Shown one piece after another: positions 34,677 through 44,335 of a stretch of 64,000 bases of DNA. The stretch is from NCBI RefSeq assembly GCF_041248615.1, contig NZ_CP158426.1. One strand, 5' to 3'. Source of the DNA: Escherichia coli (GTDB taxonomy: Bacteria > Pseudomonadota > Gammaproteobacteria > Enterobacterales > Enterobacteriaceae). The stretch's first letter is position 1; each line of letters begins with the position of its first letter. The translations under genes were made by a program, and so were the position numbers. Under the pieces are notes generated by a model. The model saw only the letters and a program-made list of their open reading frames with translations, was not told the DNA's origin and did no database searches.

Positions 34677-36368
34677 ATGAAAACGCTGCTGATTATTGAC
34701 GCTAATCTCGGTCAGGCACGCGCCTATATGGCGAAGACCCTGCTGGGCGCGGCGGCGCGAAAAGCAAAACTGGAAATCATCGACAATCCGAACGACGCTG
34801 AAATGGCGATTGTTCTCGGTGATTCCATCCCGAACGACAGCGCGCTGAACGGTAAAAATGTCTGGCTGGGCGATATTTCCCGGGCAGTTGCGCACCCTGA
34901 GCTGTTCCTGAGTGAAGCCAAAGGCCATGCGAAACCTTACACTGCGCCGGTCGCTGCGGCAGCACCGGTTGCCGCCAGCGGTCCGAAACGCGTAGTTGCG
35001 GTGACTGCTTGCCCGACTGGCGTAGCACACACCTTTATGGCGGCTGAAGCCATTGAAACCGAAGCGAAAAAACGTGGCTGGTGGGTGAAAGTTGAAACCC
35101 GTGGTTCTGTTGGCGCGGGTAATGCAATCACCCCTGAAGAAGTAGACGCAGCGGATCTGGTGATTGTGGCGGCAGATATTGAAGTGGATCTGGCGAAATT
35201 TGCTGGTAAACCGATGTATCGCACCTCTACCGGTCTGGCGCTGAAGAAAACCGCGCAGGAACTGGATAAAGCGGTTGCTGAAGCAACGCCGTATGAACCG
35301 GCGGGCAAAGCTCAAACAGCGACCACTGAAGGTAAGAAAGAGGGTGCAGGCGCTTACCGTCACTTGCTGACGGGCGTCTCTTACATGCTGCCGATGGTCG
35401 TTGCAGGTGGTCTGTGTATCGCGCTTTCTTTTGCTTTTGGTATCGAAGCGTTTAAAGAGCCGGGTACGTTGGCAGCGGCGCTGATGCAGATTGGTGGTGG
35501 TTCAGCCTTTGCGCTGATGGTGCCGGTACTGGCAGGTTATATTGCCTTCTCCATTGCCGATCGTCCGGGTCTCACGCCGGGTCTGATTGGCGGTATGCTG
35601 GCGGTCAGCACTGGTTCTGGCTTCATTGGCGGTATTATTGCGGGCTTCCTGGCTGGTTACATTGCGAAGTTAATCAGTACGCAATTGAAACTGCCACAGA
35701 GTATGGAGGCGCTGAAACCGATTCTGATCATTCCGCTAATTTCCAGTCTGGTGGTCGGTCTGGCGATGATCTACCTGATCGGTAAACCGGTTGCTGGCAT
35801 TCTCGAAGGGTTGACTCACTGGCTGCAGACCATGGGGACTGCGAATGCGGTTCTGCTGGGGGCGATCCTCGGTGGCATGATGTGTACTGACATGGGCGGT
35901 CCGGTAAACAAAGCAGCGTACGCGTTCGGTGTGGGTCTGCTGAGTACTCAAACCTATGGCCCGATGGCGGCGATTATGGCGGCAGGTATGGTGCCACCGC
36001 TGGCAATGGGCCTGGCAACAATGGTGGCGCGTCGCAAATTCGACAAAGCGCAGCAGGAAGGGGGCAAAGCCGCTCTGGTATTGGGACTGTGCTTCATTTC
36101 GGAAGGTGCAATTCCGTTTGCTGCTCGTGATCCGATGCGTGTGCTGCCGTGCTGTATCGTGGGTGGGGCGCTGACTGGCGCAATCTCAATGGCGATTGGT
36201 GCGAAACTGATGGCACCGCACGGTGGTCTGTTTGTTCTGCTGATCCCTGGCGCGATTACGCCGGTATTGGGTTACCTGGTAGCCATTATTGCCGGTACGC
36301 TGGTGGCGGGTTTGGCCTATGCCTTCCTGAAACGTCCGGAAGTGGACGCAGTTGCGAAAGCAGCGTAA
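34677..36368 (+). CDS. fruA: Fructose PTS EIIB'BC component FruA
   Basis: 563-aa ORF. Confidence 0.94.
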   Translation: MKTLLIIDANLGQARAYMAKTLLGAAARKAKLEIIDNPNDAEMAIVLGDSIPNDSALNGKNVWLGDISRAVAHPELFLSEAKGHAKPYTAPVAAAAPVAASGPKRVVAVTACPTGVAHTFMAAEAIETEAKKRGWWVKVETRGSVGAGNAITPEEVDAADLVIVAADIEVDLAKFAGKPMYRTSTGLALKKTAQELDKAVAEATPYEPAGKAQTATTEGKKEGAGAYRHLLTGVSYMLPMVVAGGLCIALSFAFGIEAFKEPGTLAAALMQIGGGSAFALMVPVLAGYIAFSIADRPGLTPGLIGGMLAVSTGSGFIGGIIAGFLAGYIAKLISTQLKLPQSMEALKPILIIPLISSLVVGLAMIYLIGKPVAGILEGLTHWLQTMGTANAVLLGAILGGMMCTDMGGPVNKAAYAFGVGLLSTQTYGPMAAIMAAGMVPPLAMGLATMVARRKFDKAQQEGGKAALVLGLCFISEGAIPFAARDPMRVLPCCIVGGALTGAISMAIGAKLMAPHGGLFVLLIPGAITPVLGYLVAIIAGTLVAGLAYAFLKRPEVDAVAKAA

Positions 36369-36378
36369 TAAAAGGTGT

Positions 36379-36409
36379 GTTGCAGGGCAGAAATTTTCTG
36401 CCCTGCAAC
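36379..36409 (+). terminator. Perfect 14-bp hairpin after fruA (probable terminator)
   Basis: GTTGCAGGGCAGAAATTTTCTGCCCTGCAAC, weak U-tract. Confidence 0.6.
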
Positions 36410-36524
36410 ATTTGATGCGCGCAAAGAGAATGACCGGTTTGTGAATGTAATTTTATGAATTTAAATGGTTTTATCTTTTAGTGGAAACCTGAAACTTTCA
36501 TCAAACACTAAGGTTATTTCCTCA

Positions 36525-36553: not shown

Positions 36554-36791
36554 TGTTCCTGTTCTGTGCATCCCGTCACAAATTCTCCGTTTTTATAATT
36601 CAGGCATTTAATCGCGTTTTGTGAGCCTGCTCAAATCTGCCCATTTTGCCTCTCTGGCGGTAATTTACTTTACGTAAAACATGCATACTATGAGCACATG
36701 TTTAAATATGAACACATGTTTAAACCATCTTTGCAGTATCTATATTCTTGTGGATTGACAGGATTGGTAATTTTTTACCAGAGGACGTGCT

Positions 36792-37733
36792 ATGCGCGAA
36801 AAGGATTATGTCGTAATTATAGGTTCGGCGAATATTGATGTCGCCGGATATTCACATGAATCATTAAATTATGCGGATTCAAATCCAGGTAAAATAAAAT
36901 TTACGCCTGGTGGAGTAGGGCGCAATATTGCACAAAACCTGGCGTTGCTGGGGAATAAAGCCTGGCTACTGAGCGCAGTAGGAAGTGATTTTTATGGTCA
37001 ATCGTTGCTAACGCAAACAAATCAATCTGGTGTTTATGTCGATAAATGCCTGATTGTGCCGGGAGAAAATACGTCGAGCTATTTATCATTACTCGATAAT
37101 ACCGGTGAAATGCTGGTTGCTATAAATGACATGAATATTAGCAACGCTATTACAGCTGAATATCTCGCACAGCACCGTGAATTTATTCAGAGGGCAAAGG
37201 TCATTGTCGCAGACTGTAATATCAGTGAAGAGGCACTGGCATGGATTCTGGATAATGCTGCCAACGTACCCGTATTTGTCGATCCGGTTTCAGCGTGGAA
37301 ATGTGTCAAAGTGCGCGACCGTCTAAATCAGATCCACACTCTCAAGCCAAACCGCCTTGAAGCGGAAACCCTGAGTGGGATTGCGCTGTCAGGGCGTGAA
37401 GATGTGGCAAAAGTTGCTGCCTGGTTCCATCAACATGGCCTGAACCGACTGGTATTGAGCATGGGCGGCGACGGCGTTTATTACAGTGATATCAGCGGTG
37501 AAAGTGGTTGGTCTGCGCCGATCAAAACCAATGTCATTAATGTTACCGGAGCGGGCGATGCCATGATGGCGGGACTTGCTTCGTGTTGGGTAGACGGAAT
37601 GCCGTTTGCCGAATCTGTTCGTTTCGCACAGGGATGTTCGTCAATGGCGCTCTCCTGTGAATACACCAATAACCCCGATTTATCGATTGCCAACGTTATA
37701 TCGTTAGTGGAGAACGCAGAATGTCTGAATTAA
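36792..37733 (+). CDS. psuK: Pseudouridine kinase PsuK (YeiC; pfkB family)
   Basis: 313-aa ORF. Confidence 0.92.
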   Translation: MREKDYVVIIGSANIDVAGYSHESLNYADSNPGKIKFTPGGVGRNIAQNLALLGNKAWLLSAVGSDFYGQSLLTQTNQSGVYVDKCLIVPGENTSSYLSLLDNTGEMLVAINDMNISNAITAEYLAQHREFIQRAKVIVADCNISEEALAWILDNAANVPVFVDPVSAWKCVKVRDRLNQIHTLKPNRLEAETLSGIALSGREDVAKVAAWFHQHGLNRLVLSMGGDGVYYSDISGESGWSAPIKTNVINVTGAGDAMMAGLASCWVDGMPFAESVRFAQGCSSMALSCEYTNNPDLSIANVISLVENAECLN

Positions 37734-38659
37734 AAATTTCCCCTGAATTATTACAAATTTCCCCGGAAGTGCAGGACGCTTTAAAAAACAAAAAACCGAT
37801 CGTGGCGCTGGAATCGACCATTATTTCTCACGGGATGCCGTTCCCACAAAATGCCCAGACCGCAATTGAAGTTGAAGAAACTATTCGTAAACAGGGCGCT
37901 GTACCTGCCACTATCGCCATTATTGGCGGCGTGATGAAAGTGGGTTTAAGCAAAGAAGAAATTGAATTGCTGGGTCGTGAAGGGCATAACGTGACCAAAG
38001 TTAGTCGTCGCGATTTACCTTTTGTTGTTGCCGCAGGGAAAAATGGCGCAACCACCGTTGCTTCAACGATGATTATTGCGGCGATTGCCGGAATTAAAGT
38101 ATTTGCCACTGGGGGAATTGGTGGAGTGCATCGCGGGGCGGAACATACCTTCGATATTTCTGCCGATTTGCAAGAGCTGGCAAATACTAATGTCACCGTT
38201 GTTTGTGCCGGGGCGAAATCTATTCTCGATTTAGGATTAACCACTGAGTATTTAGAAACTTTCGGTGTACCGCTAATTGGCTATCAGACCAAAGCGCTGC
38301 CTGCGTTTTTCTGCCGCACCAGCCCGTTTGACGTCAGCATTCGTCTCGACAGCGCCAGCGAAATTGCCCGTGCAATGGCGGTGAAATGGCAAAGCGGGCT
38401 GAACGGTGGCCTGGTGGTGGCAAATCCGATCCCGGAACAGTTTGCGATGCCGGAGGAATCTATCAATGCAGCCATAGATCAAGCCGTTGCCGAAGCCGAA
38501 GAGCAGGGCGTTATTGGTAAAGAAAGCACACCGTTCCTGCTGGCTCGTGTTGCTGAACTGACTGGCGGTGACAGCCTGAAATCCAACATCCAACTGGTGT
38601 TCAACAACGCCATTCTGGCGAGCGAAATTGCCAAAGAATACCAGCGTCTCGCGGGTTAA
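37721..38659 (+). CDS. psuG: Pseudouridine-5'-phosphate glycosidase PsuG (YeiN)
   Basis: 312-aa ORF; 13-nt overlap with psuK. Confidence 0.92.
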   Translation: MSELKISPELLQISPEVQDALKNKKPIVALESTIISHGMPFPQNAQTAIEVEETIRKQGAVPATIAIIGGVMKVGLSKEEIELLGREGHNVTKVSRRDLPFVVAAGKNGATTVASTMIIAAIAGIKVFATGGIGGVHRGAEHTFDISADLQELANTNVTVVCAGAKSILDLGLTTEYLETFGVPLIGYQTKALPAFFCRTSPFDVSIRLDSASEIARAMAVKWQSGLNGGLVVANPIPEQFAMPEESINAAIDQAVAEAEEQGVIGKESTPFLLARVAELTGGDSLKSNIQLVFNNAILASEIAKEYQRLAG

Positions 38660-38752
38660 TTTCTGACGGGCAGAAAGCCGTCGCCCGTACTGATCATACA
38701 TACCAAAACCTGGCGCTGACGCCGGGTTTACTGGCATGAAGGGAAAATCATT

Positions 38753-40003
38753 ATGGATATAATGAGAAGTGTTGTGGGGATGGTGGTGTTACTGGCAATA
38801 GCATTTCTGTTGTCAGTGAATAAAAAGAGCATCAGTTTGCGCACGGTTGGAGCCGCGCTGCTGCTACAAATCGCCATTGGCGGCATCATGCTCTATTTTC
38901 CACCAGGAAAATGGGCGGTAGAGCAGGCGGCATTAGGCGTTCATAAAGTGATGTCTTACAGTGATGCCGGTAGCGCCTTTATTTTTGGTTCATTGGTCGG
39001 GCCGAAAATGGATGTCCTGTTTGATGGCGCGGGCTTTATCTTCGCCTTTCGCGTACTCCCGGCGATTATCTTCGTCACTGCGCTCATCAGCCTGCTGTAC
39101 TACATTGGCGTGATGGGGCTGCTAATCCGCATTCTTGGCAGTATTTTTCAGAAAGCCCTCAACATCAGCAAAATCGAATCTTTTGTTGCGGTTACCACTA
39201 TTTTCCTCGGGCAAAATGAGATCCCGGCGATCGTAAAACCGTTTATCGATCGCATGAATCGCAACGAGCTATTTACGGCAATTTGTAGCGGGATGGCGTC
39301 CATTGCCGGTTCGATGATGATTGGTTATGCCGGAATGGGCGTACCAATTGACTACCTGTTAGCGGCATCGCTGATGGCGATCCCTGGTGGTATTTTGTTT
39401 GCACGTATTCTTAGCCCGGCCACCGAGCCTTCGCAGGTCACATTTGAAAATCTGTCGTTCAGCGAAACGCCGCCAAAAAGCTTTATCGAAGCGGCGGCGA
39501 GCGGTGCGATGACCGGGCTCAAAATCGCCGCTGGTGTAGCGACGGTGGTAATGGCGTTTGTCGCAATTATTGCGCTGATCAACGGCATTATCGGCGGAAT
39601 TGGCGGCTGGTTTGGTTTCGCCAATGCCTCTCTGGAAAGTATTTTTGGCTATGTGCTGGCACCGCTGGCGTGGATCATGGGTGTGGACTGGAGTGATGCC
39701 AACCTGGCGGGTAGCCTGATTGGGCAGAAACTGGCGATTAACGAATTCGTCGCTTACCTGAGTTTCTCCCCATACCTGCAAACGGGCGGCACGCTGGAAG
39801 CGAAAACCATTGCGATTATCTCCTTTGCGCTTTGTGGTTTTGCTAACTTTGGTTCTATCGGTGTTGTCGTTGGGGCATTTTCGGCTATTTCGCCAAAACG
39901 TGCTCCGGAAATCGCTCAGCTTGGTTTAAGGGCGCTGGCAGCAGCAACGCTTTCCAACCTGATGAGCGCGACCATTGCCGGGTTCTTTATTGGTTTAGCT
40001 TGA
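38753..40003 (+). CDS. psuT: NupC-family nucleoside transporter PsuT (YeiM)
   Basis: 416-aa polytopic ORF. Confidence 0.92.
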   Translation: MDIMRSVVGMVVLLAIAFLLSVNKKSISLRTVGAALLLQIAIGGIMLYFPPGKWAVEQAALGVHKVMSYSDAGSAFIFGSLVGPKMDVLFDGAGFIFAFRVLPAIIFVTALISLLYYIGVMGLLIRILGSIFQKALNISKIESFVAVTTIFLGQNEIPAIVKPFIDRMNRNELFTAICSGMASIAGSMMIGYAGMGVPIDYLLAASLMAIPGGILFARILSPATEPSQVTFENLSFSETPPKSFIEAAASGAMTGLKIAAGVATVVMAFVAIIALINGIIGGIGGWFGFANASLESIFGYVLAPLAWIMGVDWSDANLAGSLIGQKLAINEFVAYLSFSPYLQTGGTLEAKTIAIISFALCGFANFGSIGVVVGAFSAISPKRAPEIAQLGLRALAAATLSNLMSATIAGFFIGLA

Positions 40004-40010
40004 GTGTCAT

Positions 40011-40050
40011 TGCCGGATGTACGCGCTTATTAAGCGTCACATCCGGCAAT
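40011..40050. repeat. REP element
   Basis: TGCCGGATGTACGCGCTTATTAAGCGTCACATCCGGCAAT. Confidence 0.8.
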
Positions 40051-40071
40051 CGCGCTATTGCAGATTATTTT

Positions 40072-40731
40072 TTACTGCATCATCCCGGAGAATTTATTCT
40101 CCGGGTCCATCTCCAGCGCCAGTCCTGACAACTGCTTTCTGTTTTTAATTAGATATCCTTTCTTGCTTTTAATTAATAAACCGTCGTGAATGAATTGCGC
40201 GAGAACATATAAAAGATGTCGATAAGAAACGCCTAAATACTCTGCCGCTTGCGTATGCTTTTCGTGATAAAGATCACCTTCTTGTGAGAGTAATATAAAA
40301 GCTGCCAGGCGATTCACTAACGGAAATGATTGATTCTGAGTTAAAGAAACAATATTGCGATAATTTTTATGGCTTAAACTAACGCAGAGTTTTCGTAAAA
40401 ATAGTGTGTCGTTTAATAACAGCGGGCGGTAATGTTTCATAGGGAGCGCAAGACACCAACACTCTTCAATAGCCTGTACCGCACGCGGTTCATGGTCTTT
40501 ATCTATTAACTCAATCTCACCAATAAAACAGGGGGCGGCAAAGAAATCGATCAGCGACACGCGACCATTAGCTAGCGTGGCGTAAAGCCTGGCGCGGCCT
40601 CGCGTCAGGTAAAACAGCCAGGACGGCTGTTGCCCTTCCTGCACAATGTAGTCACGCGCTAAAAAATGAAACAACCGCGTATCGGCTGAAACATCCGTTG
40701 AAAAGCAATCCTTAAACGCGGATTCACTCAT
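40072..40731 (-). CDS. yeiL: CRP/FNR-family transcriptional regulator YeiL
   Basis: 219 aa from ATG at 40731 ([10 protein letters not shown]...); ORF extends 13 codons upstream. Confidence 0.88.
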
Positions 40732-40899
40732 CAATTGCTGCTTAAGATCATTATTGTGGATTTCTTTCACGATGTTTATCCGCTATGAGATTTCTCATAT
40801 TTAGCATACGTACGCTGTTGTTAAGATTCAATCATCGGCCCGGTCGAATTTTCTTTGCTGTAGAAAAAATAACGCAACTGGAAACAGAGGAAATAAACA

Positions 40900-41841
40900 A
40901 TGGAAAAGAGAAAAATTATTCTGGATTGTGATCCGGGTCATGATGATGCTATTGCCATAATGATGGCTGCGAAACATCCGGCGATTGATTTATTAGGTAT
41001 CACTATTGTGGCGGGTAATCAGACGCTTGATAAAACATTAATTAATGGCCTGAATGTTTGCCAGAAACTGGAGATTAATGTTCCGGTTTATGCGGGGATG
41101 CCGCAGCCAATTATGCGTAAACAAATCGTTGCCGATAATATTCACGGAGAAACCGGACTGGATGGCTCGGTATTCGAGCCACTGACCTGTAAAGCTGAAA
41201 GCACCCATGCGGTGAAATACATCATCGATACTCTGATGGCAAGCGATGGCGATATCACTCTGGTACCGGTTGGTCCGCTTTCAAACATCGCGGTGGCAAT
41301 GCGGATGCAGCCTGCAATTCTGCCGAAAATCCGTGAAATAGTGCTGATGGGCGGCGCTTACGGTACAGGTAACTTCACGCCGTCTGCCGAGTTCAACATC
41401 TTTGCCGACCCGGAAGCCGCACGCGTGGTGTTCACCTCCGGTGTTCCGTTGGTGATGATGGGCCTCGATCTCACCAACCAGACTGTTTGCACCCCGGACG
41501 TGATTGCTCGGATGGAAAGGGCAGGCGGCCCCGCCGGAGAGCTGTTCAGCGACATCATGAATTTCACTCTAAAAACGCAGTTCGAAAACTACGGCCTGGC
41601 TGGCGGCCCGGTGCATGACGCCACCTGCATCGGTTATCTGATTAACCCTGATGGCATTAAAACCCAGGAGATGTACGTCGAAGTGGACGTCAACAGTGGC
41701 CCTTGCTATGGGCGTACTGTCTGCGACGAGCTGGGCGTTCTTGGCAAGCCCGCTAATACCAAAGTCGGCATCACTATTGATACCGACTGGTTCTGGGGAT
41801 TAGTCGAAGAGTGCGTGCGCGGCTACATCAAAACCCATTAA
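40900..41841 (+). CDS. rihB: Pyrimidine-specific ribonucleoside hydrolase RihB
   Basis: 313 aa; N-terminal DCDPGHDD motif. Confidence 0.93.
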
Positions 41842-41940
41842 GTGTTGATAACAAGCCGGGTCAGTATCGCAAGATGCAGGCCCGGCTATTTCTGATGGGC
41901 AGAAAGCCGTCGCCCAAAATGGCATGAAGAGATAATAACT

Positions 41941-43191
41941 ATGGATGTCATGAGAAGTGTTCTGGGAATGGTGGTACTGCTGGCAATTGCATTTTTACTG
42001 TCAGTAAACAAGAAGAAGATCAGCCTGCGTACTGTCGGTGCGGCGCTGGTATTACAGGTCGTGATTGGCGGGATTATGCTTTGGTTACCGCCAGGGCGTT
42101 GGGTCGCAGAAAAAGTCGCTTTTGGCGTCCATAAAGTGATGGCGTACAGCGATGCAGGTAGCGCTTTTATCTTCGGTTCGCTGGTCGGGCCGAAAATGGA
42201 CACCTTATTTGATGGCGCAGGATTTATCTTTGGCTTCAGGGTATTACCGGCAATTATCTTCGTTACAGCACTGGTGAGTATTCTCTACTACATCGGTGTG
42301 ATGGGGATCTTAATTCGCATTCTCGGCGGTATATTCCAGAAAGCATTGAATATCAGCAAGATTGAGTCATTCGTCGCGGTCACTACCATTTTCCTCGGGC
42401 AAAACGAAATTCCGGCAATCGTCAAACCCTTTATCGATCGTCTGAATCGCAATGAATTATTTACAGCGATTTGTAGCGGGATGGCCTCGATTGCTGGTTC
42501 GACAATGATTGGTTACGCCGCACTGGGCGTGCCTGTGGAATATCTGCTGGCGGCATCGTTAATGGCGATCCCCGGCGGGATCTTGTTTGCCCGCCTGTTA
42601 AGCCCGGCTACGGAATCTTCGCAGGTTTCCTTTAATAACCTCTCTTTCACCGAAACACCGCCAAAAAGCATTATTGAAGCCGCCGCTACAGGGGCAATGA
42701 CCGGACTGAAAATCGCAGCAGGTGTGGCGACAGTGGTGATGGCATTTGTTGCAATAATTGCGTTGATTAACGGTATTATCGGCGGCGTTGGCGGCTGGTT
42801 TGGTTTTGAACATGCCTCGCTGGAGTCCATTTTAGGTTACCTGTTGGCCCCACTGGCGTGGGTGATGGGGGTTGACTGGAGTGATGCGAATCTTGCCGGA
42901 AGTTTGATTGGACAGAAGCTGGCAATAAATGAATTTGTCGCTTACCTCAATTTCTCACCTTATCTGCAAACAGCTGGCACTCTCGATGCTAAAACCGTGG
43001 CGATTATTTCCTTCGCGTTGTGCGGTTTCGCTAACTTTGGTTCTATCGGGGTGGTGGTTGGCGCATTTTCTGCGGTTGCGCCACACCGTGCACCGGAAAT
43101 CGCCCAGCTTGGTTTACGCGCGCTGGCGGCGGCGACACTTTCTAACCTGATGAGTGCCACCATTGCAGGATTCTTTATTGGCTTAGCGTAG
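41941..43191 (+). CDS. nupX: NupC-family nucleoside transporter NupX (paralog of psuT)
   Basis: 416-aa ORF, roughly 80% identical by eye to the psuT product. Confidence 0.92.
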   Translation: MDVMRSVLGMVVLLAIAFLLSVNKKKISLRTVGAALVLQVVIGGIMLWLPPGRWVAEKVAFGVHKVMAYSDAGSAFIFGSLVGPKMDTLFDGAGFIFGFRVLPAIIFVTALVSILYYIGVMGILIRILGGIFQKALNISKIESFVAVTTIFLGQNEIPAIVKPFIDRLNRNELFTAICSGMASIAGSTMIGYAALGVPVEYLLAASLMAIPGGILFARLLSPATESSQVSFNNLSFTETPPKSIIEAAATGAMTGLKIAAGVATVVMAFVAIIALINGIIGGVGGWFGFEHASLESILGYLLAPLAWVMGVDWSDANLAGSLIGQKLAINEFVAYLNFSPYLQTAGTLDAKTVAIISFALCGFANFGSIGVVVGAFSAVAPHRAPEIAQLGLRALAAATLSNLMSATIAGFFIGLA

Positions 43192-43203
43192 TGCGCGAGT
43201 TAT

Positions 43204-43241
43204 GAGCCGGATAAGATGTAGTCAAGCGTCGAATCCGGCAA
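43204..43241. repeat. REP-like palindromic element
   Basis: GAGCCGGATAAGATGTAGTCAAGCGTCGAATCCGGCAA. Confidence 0.7.
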
Positions 43242-43246
43242 CATTG

Positions 43247-44335
43247 TTACACCATCGGCACTAATGAAAGCGCGTTATCGGCAGACAGGGTAGGGTTGTT
43301 TAAGCTGCCGCTGGCGCGTGAAATTGCCGCGCAGGCCATCGCAAAACGGGCGCTGTCACGGAAATTGTTTCCCTCCAGAAAGCTATATACCAGGCCCGCC
43401 ATAAAACCATCGTCAGCACCAAAACTGTCTACTGTCGTATGCGCTGGCGCTGTCAGCAAAAATTGCTCTCCATTCTTTTCGCTGCAATAAACTGACTCAT
43501 CGGGCAAATAAACAAACAGTTGCTGAACGCCTTGCTGATGCAACGCATTCACTGCGGTATTACGGTCAGCATCGCTGGTGATCGCCTGTCCCCATAAAAT
43601 TTCCAGCTCCGGTAAAGTGGGTTTCAGGGTGTGAATATGCGCCAGCCAGTGTTTGATTTTGCCCGCTTTGAATTCTGAAACGGTATCGACAAACACCGGG
43701 ATTTCATCAGCGAGGGTAAAGACCCACTCCAGCGCCTCGGCTGTCAGGTTGCAATCAGCCAGTACCACGCCCGCATGACGAAGTAAATCGCGCGACCCGT
43801 TCAGTAGTTGCGGTGTCAACTGATCCAGCAGATGGGTATCGTTAATCGCCAGCACGATTTGATCGTCTCGATTGGCAATTGCCAGATACGTCGATGTGCT
43901 TTGACCATGTAAACGAACGCAGCCGGAGACATTCACGCCGGCGCGGCGCGTTTCTTCCAGGAGCATTTCGCCATAAAAGTCATCGCCAATCACTGAAAGC
44001 AAATGGACGTCGCGGCCTAACAGCGCCAGATTGTGGGCGATATTGCGTCCAACGCCGCCTGCCGAGCAATGAATTGTACCGGGATGAGAAGCCGCTTGCG
44101 GGTAACGGATATCCGCCATCCCGCGAATATCCATATTGATTGTCCCCACCACTACGCAGTATTCCTGCTCGGTGAGAATGTAACCTTTGCCTTTAATCCG
44201 GCCTTTGCGCATTAAATCCATAATATGCGCCGCAACGCGCGAACGGCTGATTTGCAGCATATCCGCAATTTCGTTCTGCTGAATCAGCGGGTTACGCCGT
44301 AAAATTGCAAGGATCTCCTTCTCCCGGTTGTTCAT
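43247..44335 (-). CDS. yeiI: HTH + pfkB-family sugar/nucleoside kinase-like protein YeiI
   Basis: 362 aa; N-terminal ~60-aa HTH-like segment, then pfkB domain homologous to PsuK (GGVGRNIA, HTLKP). Confidence 0.9.
   Translation of the reverse strand: MNNREKEILAILRRNPLIQQNEIADMLQISRSRVAAHIMDLMRKGRIKGKGYILTEQEYCVVVGTINMDIRGMADIRYPQAASHPGTIHCSAGGVGRNIAHNLALLGRDVHLLSVIGDDFYGEMLLEETRRAGVNVSGCVRLHGQSTSTYLAIANRDDQIVLAINDTHLLDQLTPQLLNGSRDLLRHAGVVLADCNLTAEALEWVFTLADEIPVFVDTVSEFKAGKIKHWLAHIHTLKPTLPELEILWGQAITSDADRNTAVNALHQQGVQQLFVYLPDESVYCSEKNGEQFLLTAPAHTTVDSFGADDGFMAGLVYSFLEGNNFRDSARFAMACAAISRASGSLNNPTLSADNALSLVPMV

Follow-up and report, generated by a model that had tools for sequence, protein, structure and literature searches.

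Can two diverged paralogous genes that lie as direct repeats in a bacterial chromosome recombine with each other, and what is left behind when they do? The locus that raises this question is in a 64,000-nt stretch of Escherichia coli DNA (contig NZ_CP158426.1, assembly GCF_041248615.1), called the window below. In the window, the transporter genes psuT (38753..40003, + strand) and nupX (41941..43191, +) bracket yeiL and rihB. An earlier note on this DNA predicted that recombination between psuT and nupX would delete yeiL and rihB and leave a chimeric transporter. Such deletions exist in nature: 5 of 5,426 complete E. coli genomes carry a psuT::nupX chimera, with different crossovers, and wider data contain more events.

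psuT and nupX each encode a transporter of the CNT/NupC family with 416 amino acids (aa). psuT, the last gene of psuK-psuG-psuT, was assigned from its open reading frame (ORF), Pfam, RefSeq annotation and synteny in E. albertii and Citrobacter, and nupX from its ORF, Pfam and identity to psuT. Both gene names were taken from the RefSeq annotation of NZ_LT599825.1, which is a 100% match to the window. The ORFs agree with the coordinates, strand and protein length in the earlier note, and its assignment to the NupC family holds for both proteins, in which the three CNT domains (Nucleos_tra2_N, Gate and Nucleos_tra2_C) are all above Pfam cut-offs. The genes are on the same replicon in direct orientation with a start-to-start spacing of 3,188 bp, as the note had it to within rounding (about 3.2 kb). 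Two genes lie between them: yeiL (40072..40770, -) encodes a CRP/FNR-type regulator with cNMP_binding and HTH_Crp_2 domains, and rihB (40900..41841, +) encodes a pyrimidine ribonucleoside hydrolase with an IU_nuc_hydro domain (ORF, RefSeq annotation and Pfam in both cases). The flanks are psuG (37721..38659, +) on the left and yeiI (43247..44335, -), which encodes a helix-turn-helix (HTH) and PfkB kinase protein, on the right. The complete gene order is fruA, psuK, psuG, psuT, yeiL(-), rihB, nupX, yeiI(-), nfo(-), yeiH(-).

Fusions were detected with a junction probe in which the 3' end of psuG and the first 100 nt of psuT were joined to the last 100 nt of nupX and yeiI. The two halves of this probe report as a single place only when the 3.19-kb unit is absent. 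In 391 of the 5,426 genomes, at least 80% of the probe matched at a single place; 386 of these matches are a separate locus with about 75% identity, and five are the native locus. At the native locus, psuG, one transporter gene and yeiI occupy a span of 2,851 or 2,902 bp, which is the probe plus 1,051 bp of gene. The five strains are CFSAN004176 (human, USA), 11PC (mink, China), SY019 (human, South Korea), E203449 (human, Mali) and EH10-18-47 (human, Laos). All five loci (L004-L008) have the arrangement fruA-psuK-psuG-[single 416-aa transporter]-yeiI-nfo, with yeiL and rihB gone and both flanks kept. At sites that distinguish psuT from nupX, each of the five genes is psuT-type in its 5' part and nupX-type in its 3' part, with a different switch point in each. 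The five complete-genome fusions are five independent events, at a frequency of 0.09%.

The fusions are not confined to complete genomes. Four distinguishable hybrid proteins are found on 29, 6, 6 and 4 contigs in a large protein collection, nearly all of them in fused context. Counting the complete genomes, the survey for a single chimeric transporter that the earlier note called for yields 22 fused loci with 11 distinct fusion-gene sequences, which represent at least about eight independent events. In all 22, the hybrid is a 1,251-bp gene that is in frame and in register, with the upstream repeat copy (psuT) as its 5' part and the downstream copy (nupX) as its 3' part, and yeiL and rihB are absent wherever flank is available. 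Between 0 and 13 residues separate the hybrid proteins from the parental PsuT (none in 11PC), and the hybrids keep Nucleos_tra2_N, Gate and Nucleos_tra2_C above Pfam cut-offs. Literature searches under current and older gene names, with a coverage that is incomplete and thus no proof, gave no report of psuT::nupX fusions. The class of mechanism is textbook; the example at the psuT/nupX locus is newly documented.

The crossovers can be placed to within short tracts by comparison with a panel of intact loci and the nearest intact relatives of each chimera. The EH10-18-47 gene is rebuilt with zero mismatches from K-12 psuT and nupX, with the exchange in a 23-bp tract at gene positions 925-947. 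The SY019 gene is likewise rebuilt with zero mismatches from the 118UI gene pair, with the exchange in a 23-bp tract at 757-779, and the 11PC gene from the AMSCJX02 gene pair, with the exchange in a 5-bp tract at 1198-1202 that lies between two 29-bp tracts. A fourth exact case, found in L114 and L116, is a K-12 psuT::nupX fusion with its exchange in a 20-bp tract at 1090-1109. For the remaining two complete genomes the best parents are imperfect and the positions are provisional: 965-977 (13 bp) in CFSAN004176, with 5 mismatches, and 1084-1088 (5 bp) in E203449, with 16 mismatches. Together the exchanges define a crossover zone at gene positions 757-1202 (39509..39954, +, in psuT; 42697..43142, +, in nupX), with tracts at 757-779, 925-947, 965-977, 1084-1109 and 1198-1202. 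All five complete-genome crossovers are in the last 40% of the gene, which has a probability of about 0.01 under uniform placement. A random in-register junction has a chance of 0.05-0.07 of falling in a tract of at least 23 bp, and the enrichment of junctions in long tracts is suggestive, not decisive.

How similar are the two genes over which these exchanges occur? psuT and nupX align without gaps and with zero indels, and 983 of 1,251 nt (78.6%) and 369 of 416 aa (88.7%) are identical. The earlier estimate of roughly 80% identity is therefore right for the DNA. Because the nucleotide differences are mostly at third codon positions (201 of 268), where identity is 52%, the two genes are under purifying selection and long diverged. 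The 3' part is 81-84% identical, compared with 76-77% in the 5' part. The same note described long stretches of identical DNA, and here the alignment disagrees. The longest identical tract in the window is 20 bp (GCTAACTTTGGTTCTATCGG; 39842..39861, +, in psuT and 43030..43049, +, in nupX) and is also the site of exchange in the L114/L116 fusion; the next-longest are 19, 19, 17, 17 and 14 bp, and no tract in the window reaches 23 bp. Other intact alleles offer more. The longest tract within a strain is 23-38 bp in nine other intact loci (38 bp in the K-12 type), 98 bp in L115 and 137 bp in strain SCPM-O-B-8794. No Chi site is present in or between psuT and nupX, and the nearest is at 36299 in fruA.

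The minimal efficient processing segment (MEPS) for recombination in E. coli is quoted as 23-90 bp, depending on the pathway (PMC3758752). The alignment check proposed in the earlier note thus comes out on the side of tracts that are too short in the window (20 bp at most), yet deletion variants exist.

Conversion patches without deletion are also present, in both directions. In L115, an isolate assembly with a complete intact locus, the 98 bp at psuT positions 1090-1187 are identical to the strain's own nupX and are flanked on both sides by psuT-type sequence. In SCPM-O-B-8794, the 3' end of nupX is psuT-type, and the 137 bp at positions 1078-1214 are identical to its own psuT. There are two haplotypes of the 3' end (the last codons and the immediate downstream sequence), and all four psuT/nupX combinations of these occur among 14 strains. 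A metagenome scaffold (L112; ENA ERZ28644420 scaffold_3191, 118-3812) has a psuT in which the last ~470 bp are nupX-type. This psuT has 1 mismatch relative to the SY019 fusion gene, and downstream of it are the flank that normally follows psuT, a split yeiL, rihB and the 5' part of nupX. The scaffold may be a large conversion intermediate or an assembly chimera. A direct probe for the arrangement found it in 0 of the 5,426 complete genomes, where the best full-length match was 91% identical, the same as for ordinary loci.

The history of the pair bears on what a fusion does to the locus. Among the matches listed, the layout in E. albertii and in three Citrobacter species is fruA...psuK-psuG-psuT-yeiI-nfo-yeiH, in which one transporter gene is directly beside yeiI; in Superficieibacter electus, a yeiL(-)-rihB-nupX-like module stands by itself. 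E. coli psuT shares 88-91% identity with its E. albertii counterpart and 81-83% with those of Citrobacter, and nupX is 77-79% identical to the E. albertii and Citrobacter genes and to psuT. Because psuT is closer to the outgroup orthologs than to nupX, the split between psuT and nupX predates the divergence of Escherichia and Citrobacter. We rejected a recent local tandem duplication: psuT and nupX are not mutual closest relatives, the outgroups are single-copy, and yeiL-rihB-nupX is a separate module. We also rejected the E. albertii/Citrobacter gene as an old fusion, since it is psuT-like to its 3' end. From these comparisons, the E. coli lineage probably acquired the yeiL-rihB-nupX module at a position between psuT and yeiI.

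We propose that the diverged paralogs undergo rare, homology-guided ectopic exchange, which gives rise to both fusions and conversions. We put the probability of this reading at roughly 80%, a figure that leaves out the RecA step. As in-register direct repeats 3.19 kb apart and ~79% identical, psuT and nupX would on rare occasions take part in ectopic (non-allelic) recombination, starting at short perfectly identical tracts that are concentrated in the better-conserved 3' 40%. Non-crossover outcomes would leave gene-conversion patches in either gene. A crossover or deletion would remove one repeat unit, that is, the 3' part of psuT, yeiL, rihB and the 5' part of nupX. The product would be an in-frame 416-aa psuT-5'::nupX-3' hybrid under psu-operon control, and the fusion would restore the ancestral four-gene layout psuK-psuG-transporter-yeiI.

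Several points weigh against this proposal or soften parts of it. With 5-23 bp, the exchange tracts do not exceed the lower end of the quoted MEPS (23-90 bp). The enrichment in long tracts is marginal (Fisher p = 0.06, from three unbiased exact cases). The clustering of crossovers toward the 3' end could also reflect selection for functional hybrids, and look-ups of identical proteins bias the additional events toward crossover intervals that had already been seen. The reciprocal duplication hybrid (nupX-5'::psuT-3') was not found in the 5,426 genomes with a redesigned probe, which is weak evidence because duplications are unstable; the sole match to that probe, in strain BA92, is a shorter locus and not a true match. 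Finally, the direction of gain, insertion in E. coli or clean loss elsewhere, depends on the few outgroups among the matches listed.

The enzymology is a separate matter. We lean toward RecA-dependent homeologous recombination that works at the lower MEPS limit and would normally be suppressed by mismatch repair, and we regard this as somewhat probable. Exchange between diverged sequences is aborted by mismatch repair (PMC8918686). Recombination that depends on RecA and is edited in this way fits the rarity of the events and the two exact exchanges at the 23-bp lower bound. If tract length matters in this way, then the window strain, with its 20 bp, would be a poorer substrate than strains of the K-12 type (38 bp) or the SCPM type (137 bp).

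The fusions could instead have formed without RecA, by replication slippage, template switching or single-strand annealing at in-register homologies of 5-23 bp on the same or a sister chromosome. The exchange tracts are indeed short (5, 13, 20 and 23 bp), the window offers nothing longer than its 20-bp tract, the preference for long tracts is marginal, and a neighboring 1,138-bp deletion in nupX used a microhomology of 3 nt, so such events do occur here. However, register and frame are kept perfectly in each of the 22 fused loci, and the 98- and 137-bp patches, which run across many mismatches, indicate heteroduplex formation or templated repair between the paralogs. The efficiency of RecA-independent deletion drops steeply with the distance between repeats, and 3.2 kb between psuT and nupX counts against this route, which we consider possible but on the whole unlikely. 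It is also conceivable that fusion takes two steps. Conversion of the 3' end would make an identical tract of at least 100 bp, RecA-dependent deletion would then occur inside it, and the switch point seen today would be an old conversion edge. Intact loci with long identical tracts are known from L115 (98 bp) and SCPM-O-B-8794 (137 bp), and L112 has the SY019-type hybrid gene together with the psuT downstream flank, yeiL, rihB and the 5' part of nupX. Yet the L112 arrangement is missing from all of the complete genomes, and the scaffold could be a chimera of assembly, joined at the gene end of 36-38 bp that both copies share. L115, which differs from E203449 at 50 of 1,961 nt upstream, is not its parent, and four fusions are explained exactly by parental alleles that have not undergone conversion. 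We find a two-step origin doubtful, although such a route may contribute.

Two further explanations do without exchange between the paralogs, and we give them almost no credence. Repeats can collapse during assembly, and several of the records are chromosome-level whole-genome shotgun assemblies, so that a genome with one transporter might be an artefact of collapsed paralogs. But 79% identity, with identical runs of at most 38 bp, is too much divergence for a collapse, the five genomes are from as many laboratories, and at least 24 independent contigs share exactly the CFSAN004176 junction. Eight complete genomes have no megablast match to the yeiL-rihB interval, a number large enough by itself to include the five fusions. 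Isolate, Logan and metagenome assemblies contain the other fusions again, and this recurrence rules out assembly collapse. Equally improbable is that the single-transporter strains never had the module or imported the locus from an E. albertii- or Citrobacter-like donor. Both groups naturally have the single-transporter layout, and the deep allelic diversity at the locus suggests that imports occur. However, the hybrids are mosaics made up exactly of psuT and nupX alleles from E. coli, four of them without a single mismatch, and the single gene of E. albertii is psuT-like to its 3' end, where its identity to nupX is only 79-86%.

Rare homology-guided exchange between the paralogs might also be part of a slower cycle. 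We speculate that the 3' third of the two genes passes through a cycle of concerted evolution, in which sporadic conversion patches of ~100-140 bp (possibly up to ~470 bp) would for a time raise identical tracts well above the MEPS and so license RecA-dependent deletion, so that most fusions would be primed by conversion and would reverse an ancient insertion. We hold this only tentatively and think it improbable as a whole. If it were true, the alleles that an E. coli lineage now carries would set its risk of deletion, with orders of magnitude between lineages.

The psuT/nupX fusions resemble the Lepore-type hybrids produced by non-allelic homologous recombination (NAHR), such as those of delta-beta globin, opsin and CYP21, and deletions between direct repeats in bacteria (rrn, insertion sequences [IS], rhs). 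In both, paralogs in direct orientation give an in-register hybrid with the upstream gene at its 5' end and the downstream gene at its 3' end. Exactly one repeat unit and the DNA between the copies are lost, and events recur with different breakpoints on different allelic backgrounds. Unlike the repeats in typical bacterial NAHR, psuT and nupX are ~79% identical with tracts of at most 38 bp in most strains, and the reciprocal duplication that is part of the full NAHR expectation was not found among the 5,426 genomes. Ectopic gene conversion between bacterial paralogs is known from tufA and tufB in Salmonella, where it is frequent and keeps the copies nearly identical. Short donor-type patches have similarly been copied between psuT and nupX, in both directions and within an otherwise intact locus, but between these two genes conversion occurs only sporadically and only at the 3' end, and they stay ~79% identical. 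MEPS sets a limit on homeologous recombination, and mismatch repair edits it (Shen and Huang 1986, as related in PMC3758752 and PMC8918686). The two exact exchanges in 23-bp tracts match the lower MEPS bound, and the rarity of the fusions fits suppression by mismatch repair, whereas the exchanges that map to tracts of 5-13 bp do not conform. We conclude that the fusions reveal no new kind of system.

The earlier note also called the locus a likely hotspot for structural variation, and this goes too far: fusions are found in 0.09% of complete genomes, the yeiL-rihB interval is kept in 5,418 of 5,426 (megablast), and most of the structural variation comes from other mechanisms. The commonest variant at the locus is a deletion of 1,138 bp inside nupX (42005..43142, +; gene positions 65-1202), which is found in ATCC 25922-type strains and is unrelated to the fusions. 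The intact allele of strain 3-72 gives an exact reconstruction of this frameshifting deletion, which has a microhomology of 3 nt (TAA) and is present in ~967 records, or ~18% of complete genomes. IS1-linked deletions occur in TOK-001, ET734 and strain 8600. By annotation, IS1 adjoins a 750-nt remnant of the nupX 3' end in TOK-001 (L024 4288-5749) and ET734 (L025 3469-4930), and the left-side losses of these two differ, comprising rihB or both yeiL and rihB. In strain 8600 (L010 2835-4018), IS1 stands in place of the DNA from the 3' part of psuG through the 5' part of rihB. Smaller changes include a yeiL-rihB interval in BA92 that is ~440 bp shorter and leaves a truncated hydrolase (H143, NZ_CP176406.1 1728864-1730661), an internal stop in the nupX of PD007 (L023 5352-6602) and a nupX in JNE23-001 that is 18 bp shorter (L020 5348-6580).

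Alleles of this locus are unusually deep for E. coli. For example, window positions 36663-42007 (psuK..rihB) are 89.6% identical to ATCC 25922 (L001), and psuT alleles (L001, L015, L018, L019 and L026) are up to ~10% apart, like the genes of E. coli and E. albertii (88-91%). Strain 4238 is a mosaic of both allele classes. In addition, ~386 genomes and 6-7 plasmids contain a second cassette, psuK-psuG-CNT transporter-HTH/PfkB kinase(-), in IS-flanked or island DNA. Compact and four genes long, this cassette shares ~75% identity with the native genes; examples are in strain 10 (L009 3841-8152), CUPS04 (L011 3841-8151) and plasmid NZ_CP173464 (H40).

The homology between psuT and nupX reaches beyond the coding sequence on one side. 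It extends ~20 nt upstream of each ATG, is interrupted by a 41-nt indel, and resumes in a 28-nt box (38659..38686, +, for psuT; 41888..41915, +, for nupX; 27 of 28 positions identical); at the other end it stops at the stop codons. The core of this leader box, CGGGCAG-N3-G-N2-GTCGCCC (38666-38686 and 41895-41915), is kept upstream of PsuT/NupX-type genes in E. coli, E. albertii, Citrobacter, Superficieibacter and the mobile cassette and is absent in Serratia and Hafnia; synonymous sites in the genes are far less well conserved. A palindrome in the box, TTTCTG-N5-CAGAAA, was discarded as a conserved element, because it is not kept among alleles and genera and only the core is. An Rfam scan of the locus at E <= 1, leader motif included, gave no match. 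From its conservation, the motif could be an operator or an RNA element. The psuT-type leaders have an additional GC hairpin followed by UUU (38707-38727), which the nupX leader lacks because of the 41-nt indel.

Other repeats flank the genes. Palindromes like repetitive extragenic palindromic (REP) elements (GCCGGATG...CATCCGGC) are 3' of both transporter genes, at 40004-40071 and 43192-43246. Strains of the K-12 type have an extra 51-bp REP-containing insertion between nupX and yeiI, and this insertion accounts for the two sizes of the fused locus, 2,851 and 2,902 bp. Just 3' of fruA, at 36378-36410, is a perfect 16-nt inverted repeat (TGTTGCAGGGCAGAAA / TTTCTGCCCTGCAACA), probably the fruA terminator, which has GGGCAGAAA in common with the leader box, apparently by chance.

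What does a cell lose when the two genes fuse? The fusion removes YeiL, RihB and NupX and keeps a PsuT-like transporter under psu-operon control. The full three-domain architecture of the CNT family (E. coli NupC, NupX and PsuT/YeiM; vcCNT) is common to PsuT, NupX and the hybrids, and PsuT and NupX form a clade apart from NupC. NupX has weak uptake of uridine and cytidine, PsuT takes up none of the nucleosides tested, and PsuT was named a pseudouridine transporter by operon association only (PMC11241209). The loss is evidently tolerated, because ~18% of E. coli are already without nupX, and we suspect that cells withstand the deletion because they can do without RihB and NupX.

The locus provides a natural series for recombination between diverged repeats: intact alleles with identical tracts of 20-137 bp, patches of conversion from either gene into the other, and at least eight independent in-frame fusions with breakpoints that can be mapped to the base. 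With this series, the effect of tract length and mismatch repair on deletion rates in wild E. coli could be measured. It also follows that yeiL, rihB and nupX are not reliably present in the species: ~18% of genomes are without nupX, and rare lineages are without all three. Hybrid transporters will be annotated ambiguously, as psuT or as nupX. Both the absence of these genes and the naming of the hybrids bear on pan-genome calling and on studies of the uptake of nucleosides and nucleoside drugs.

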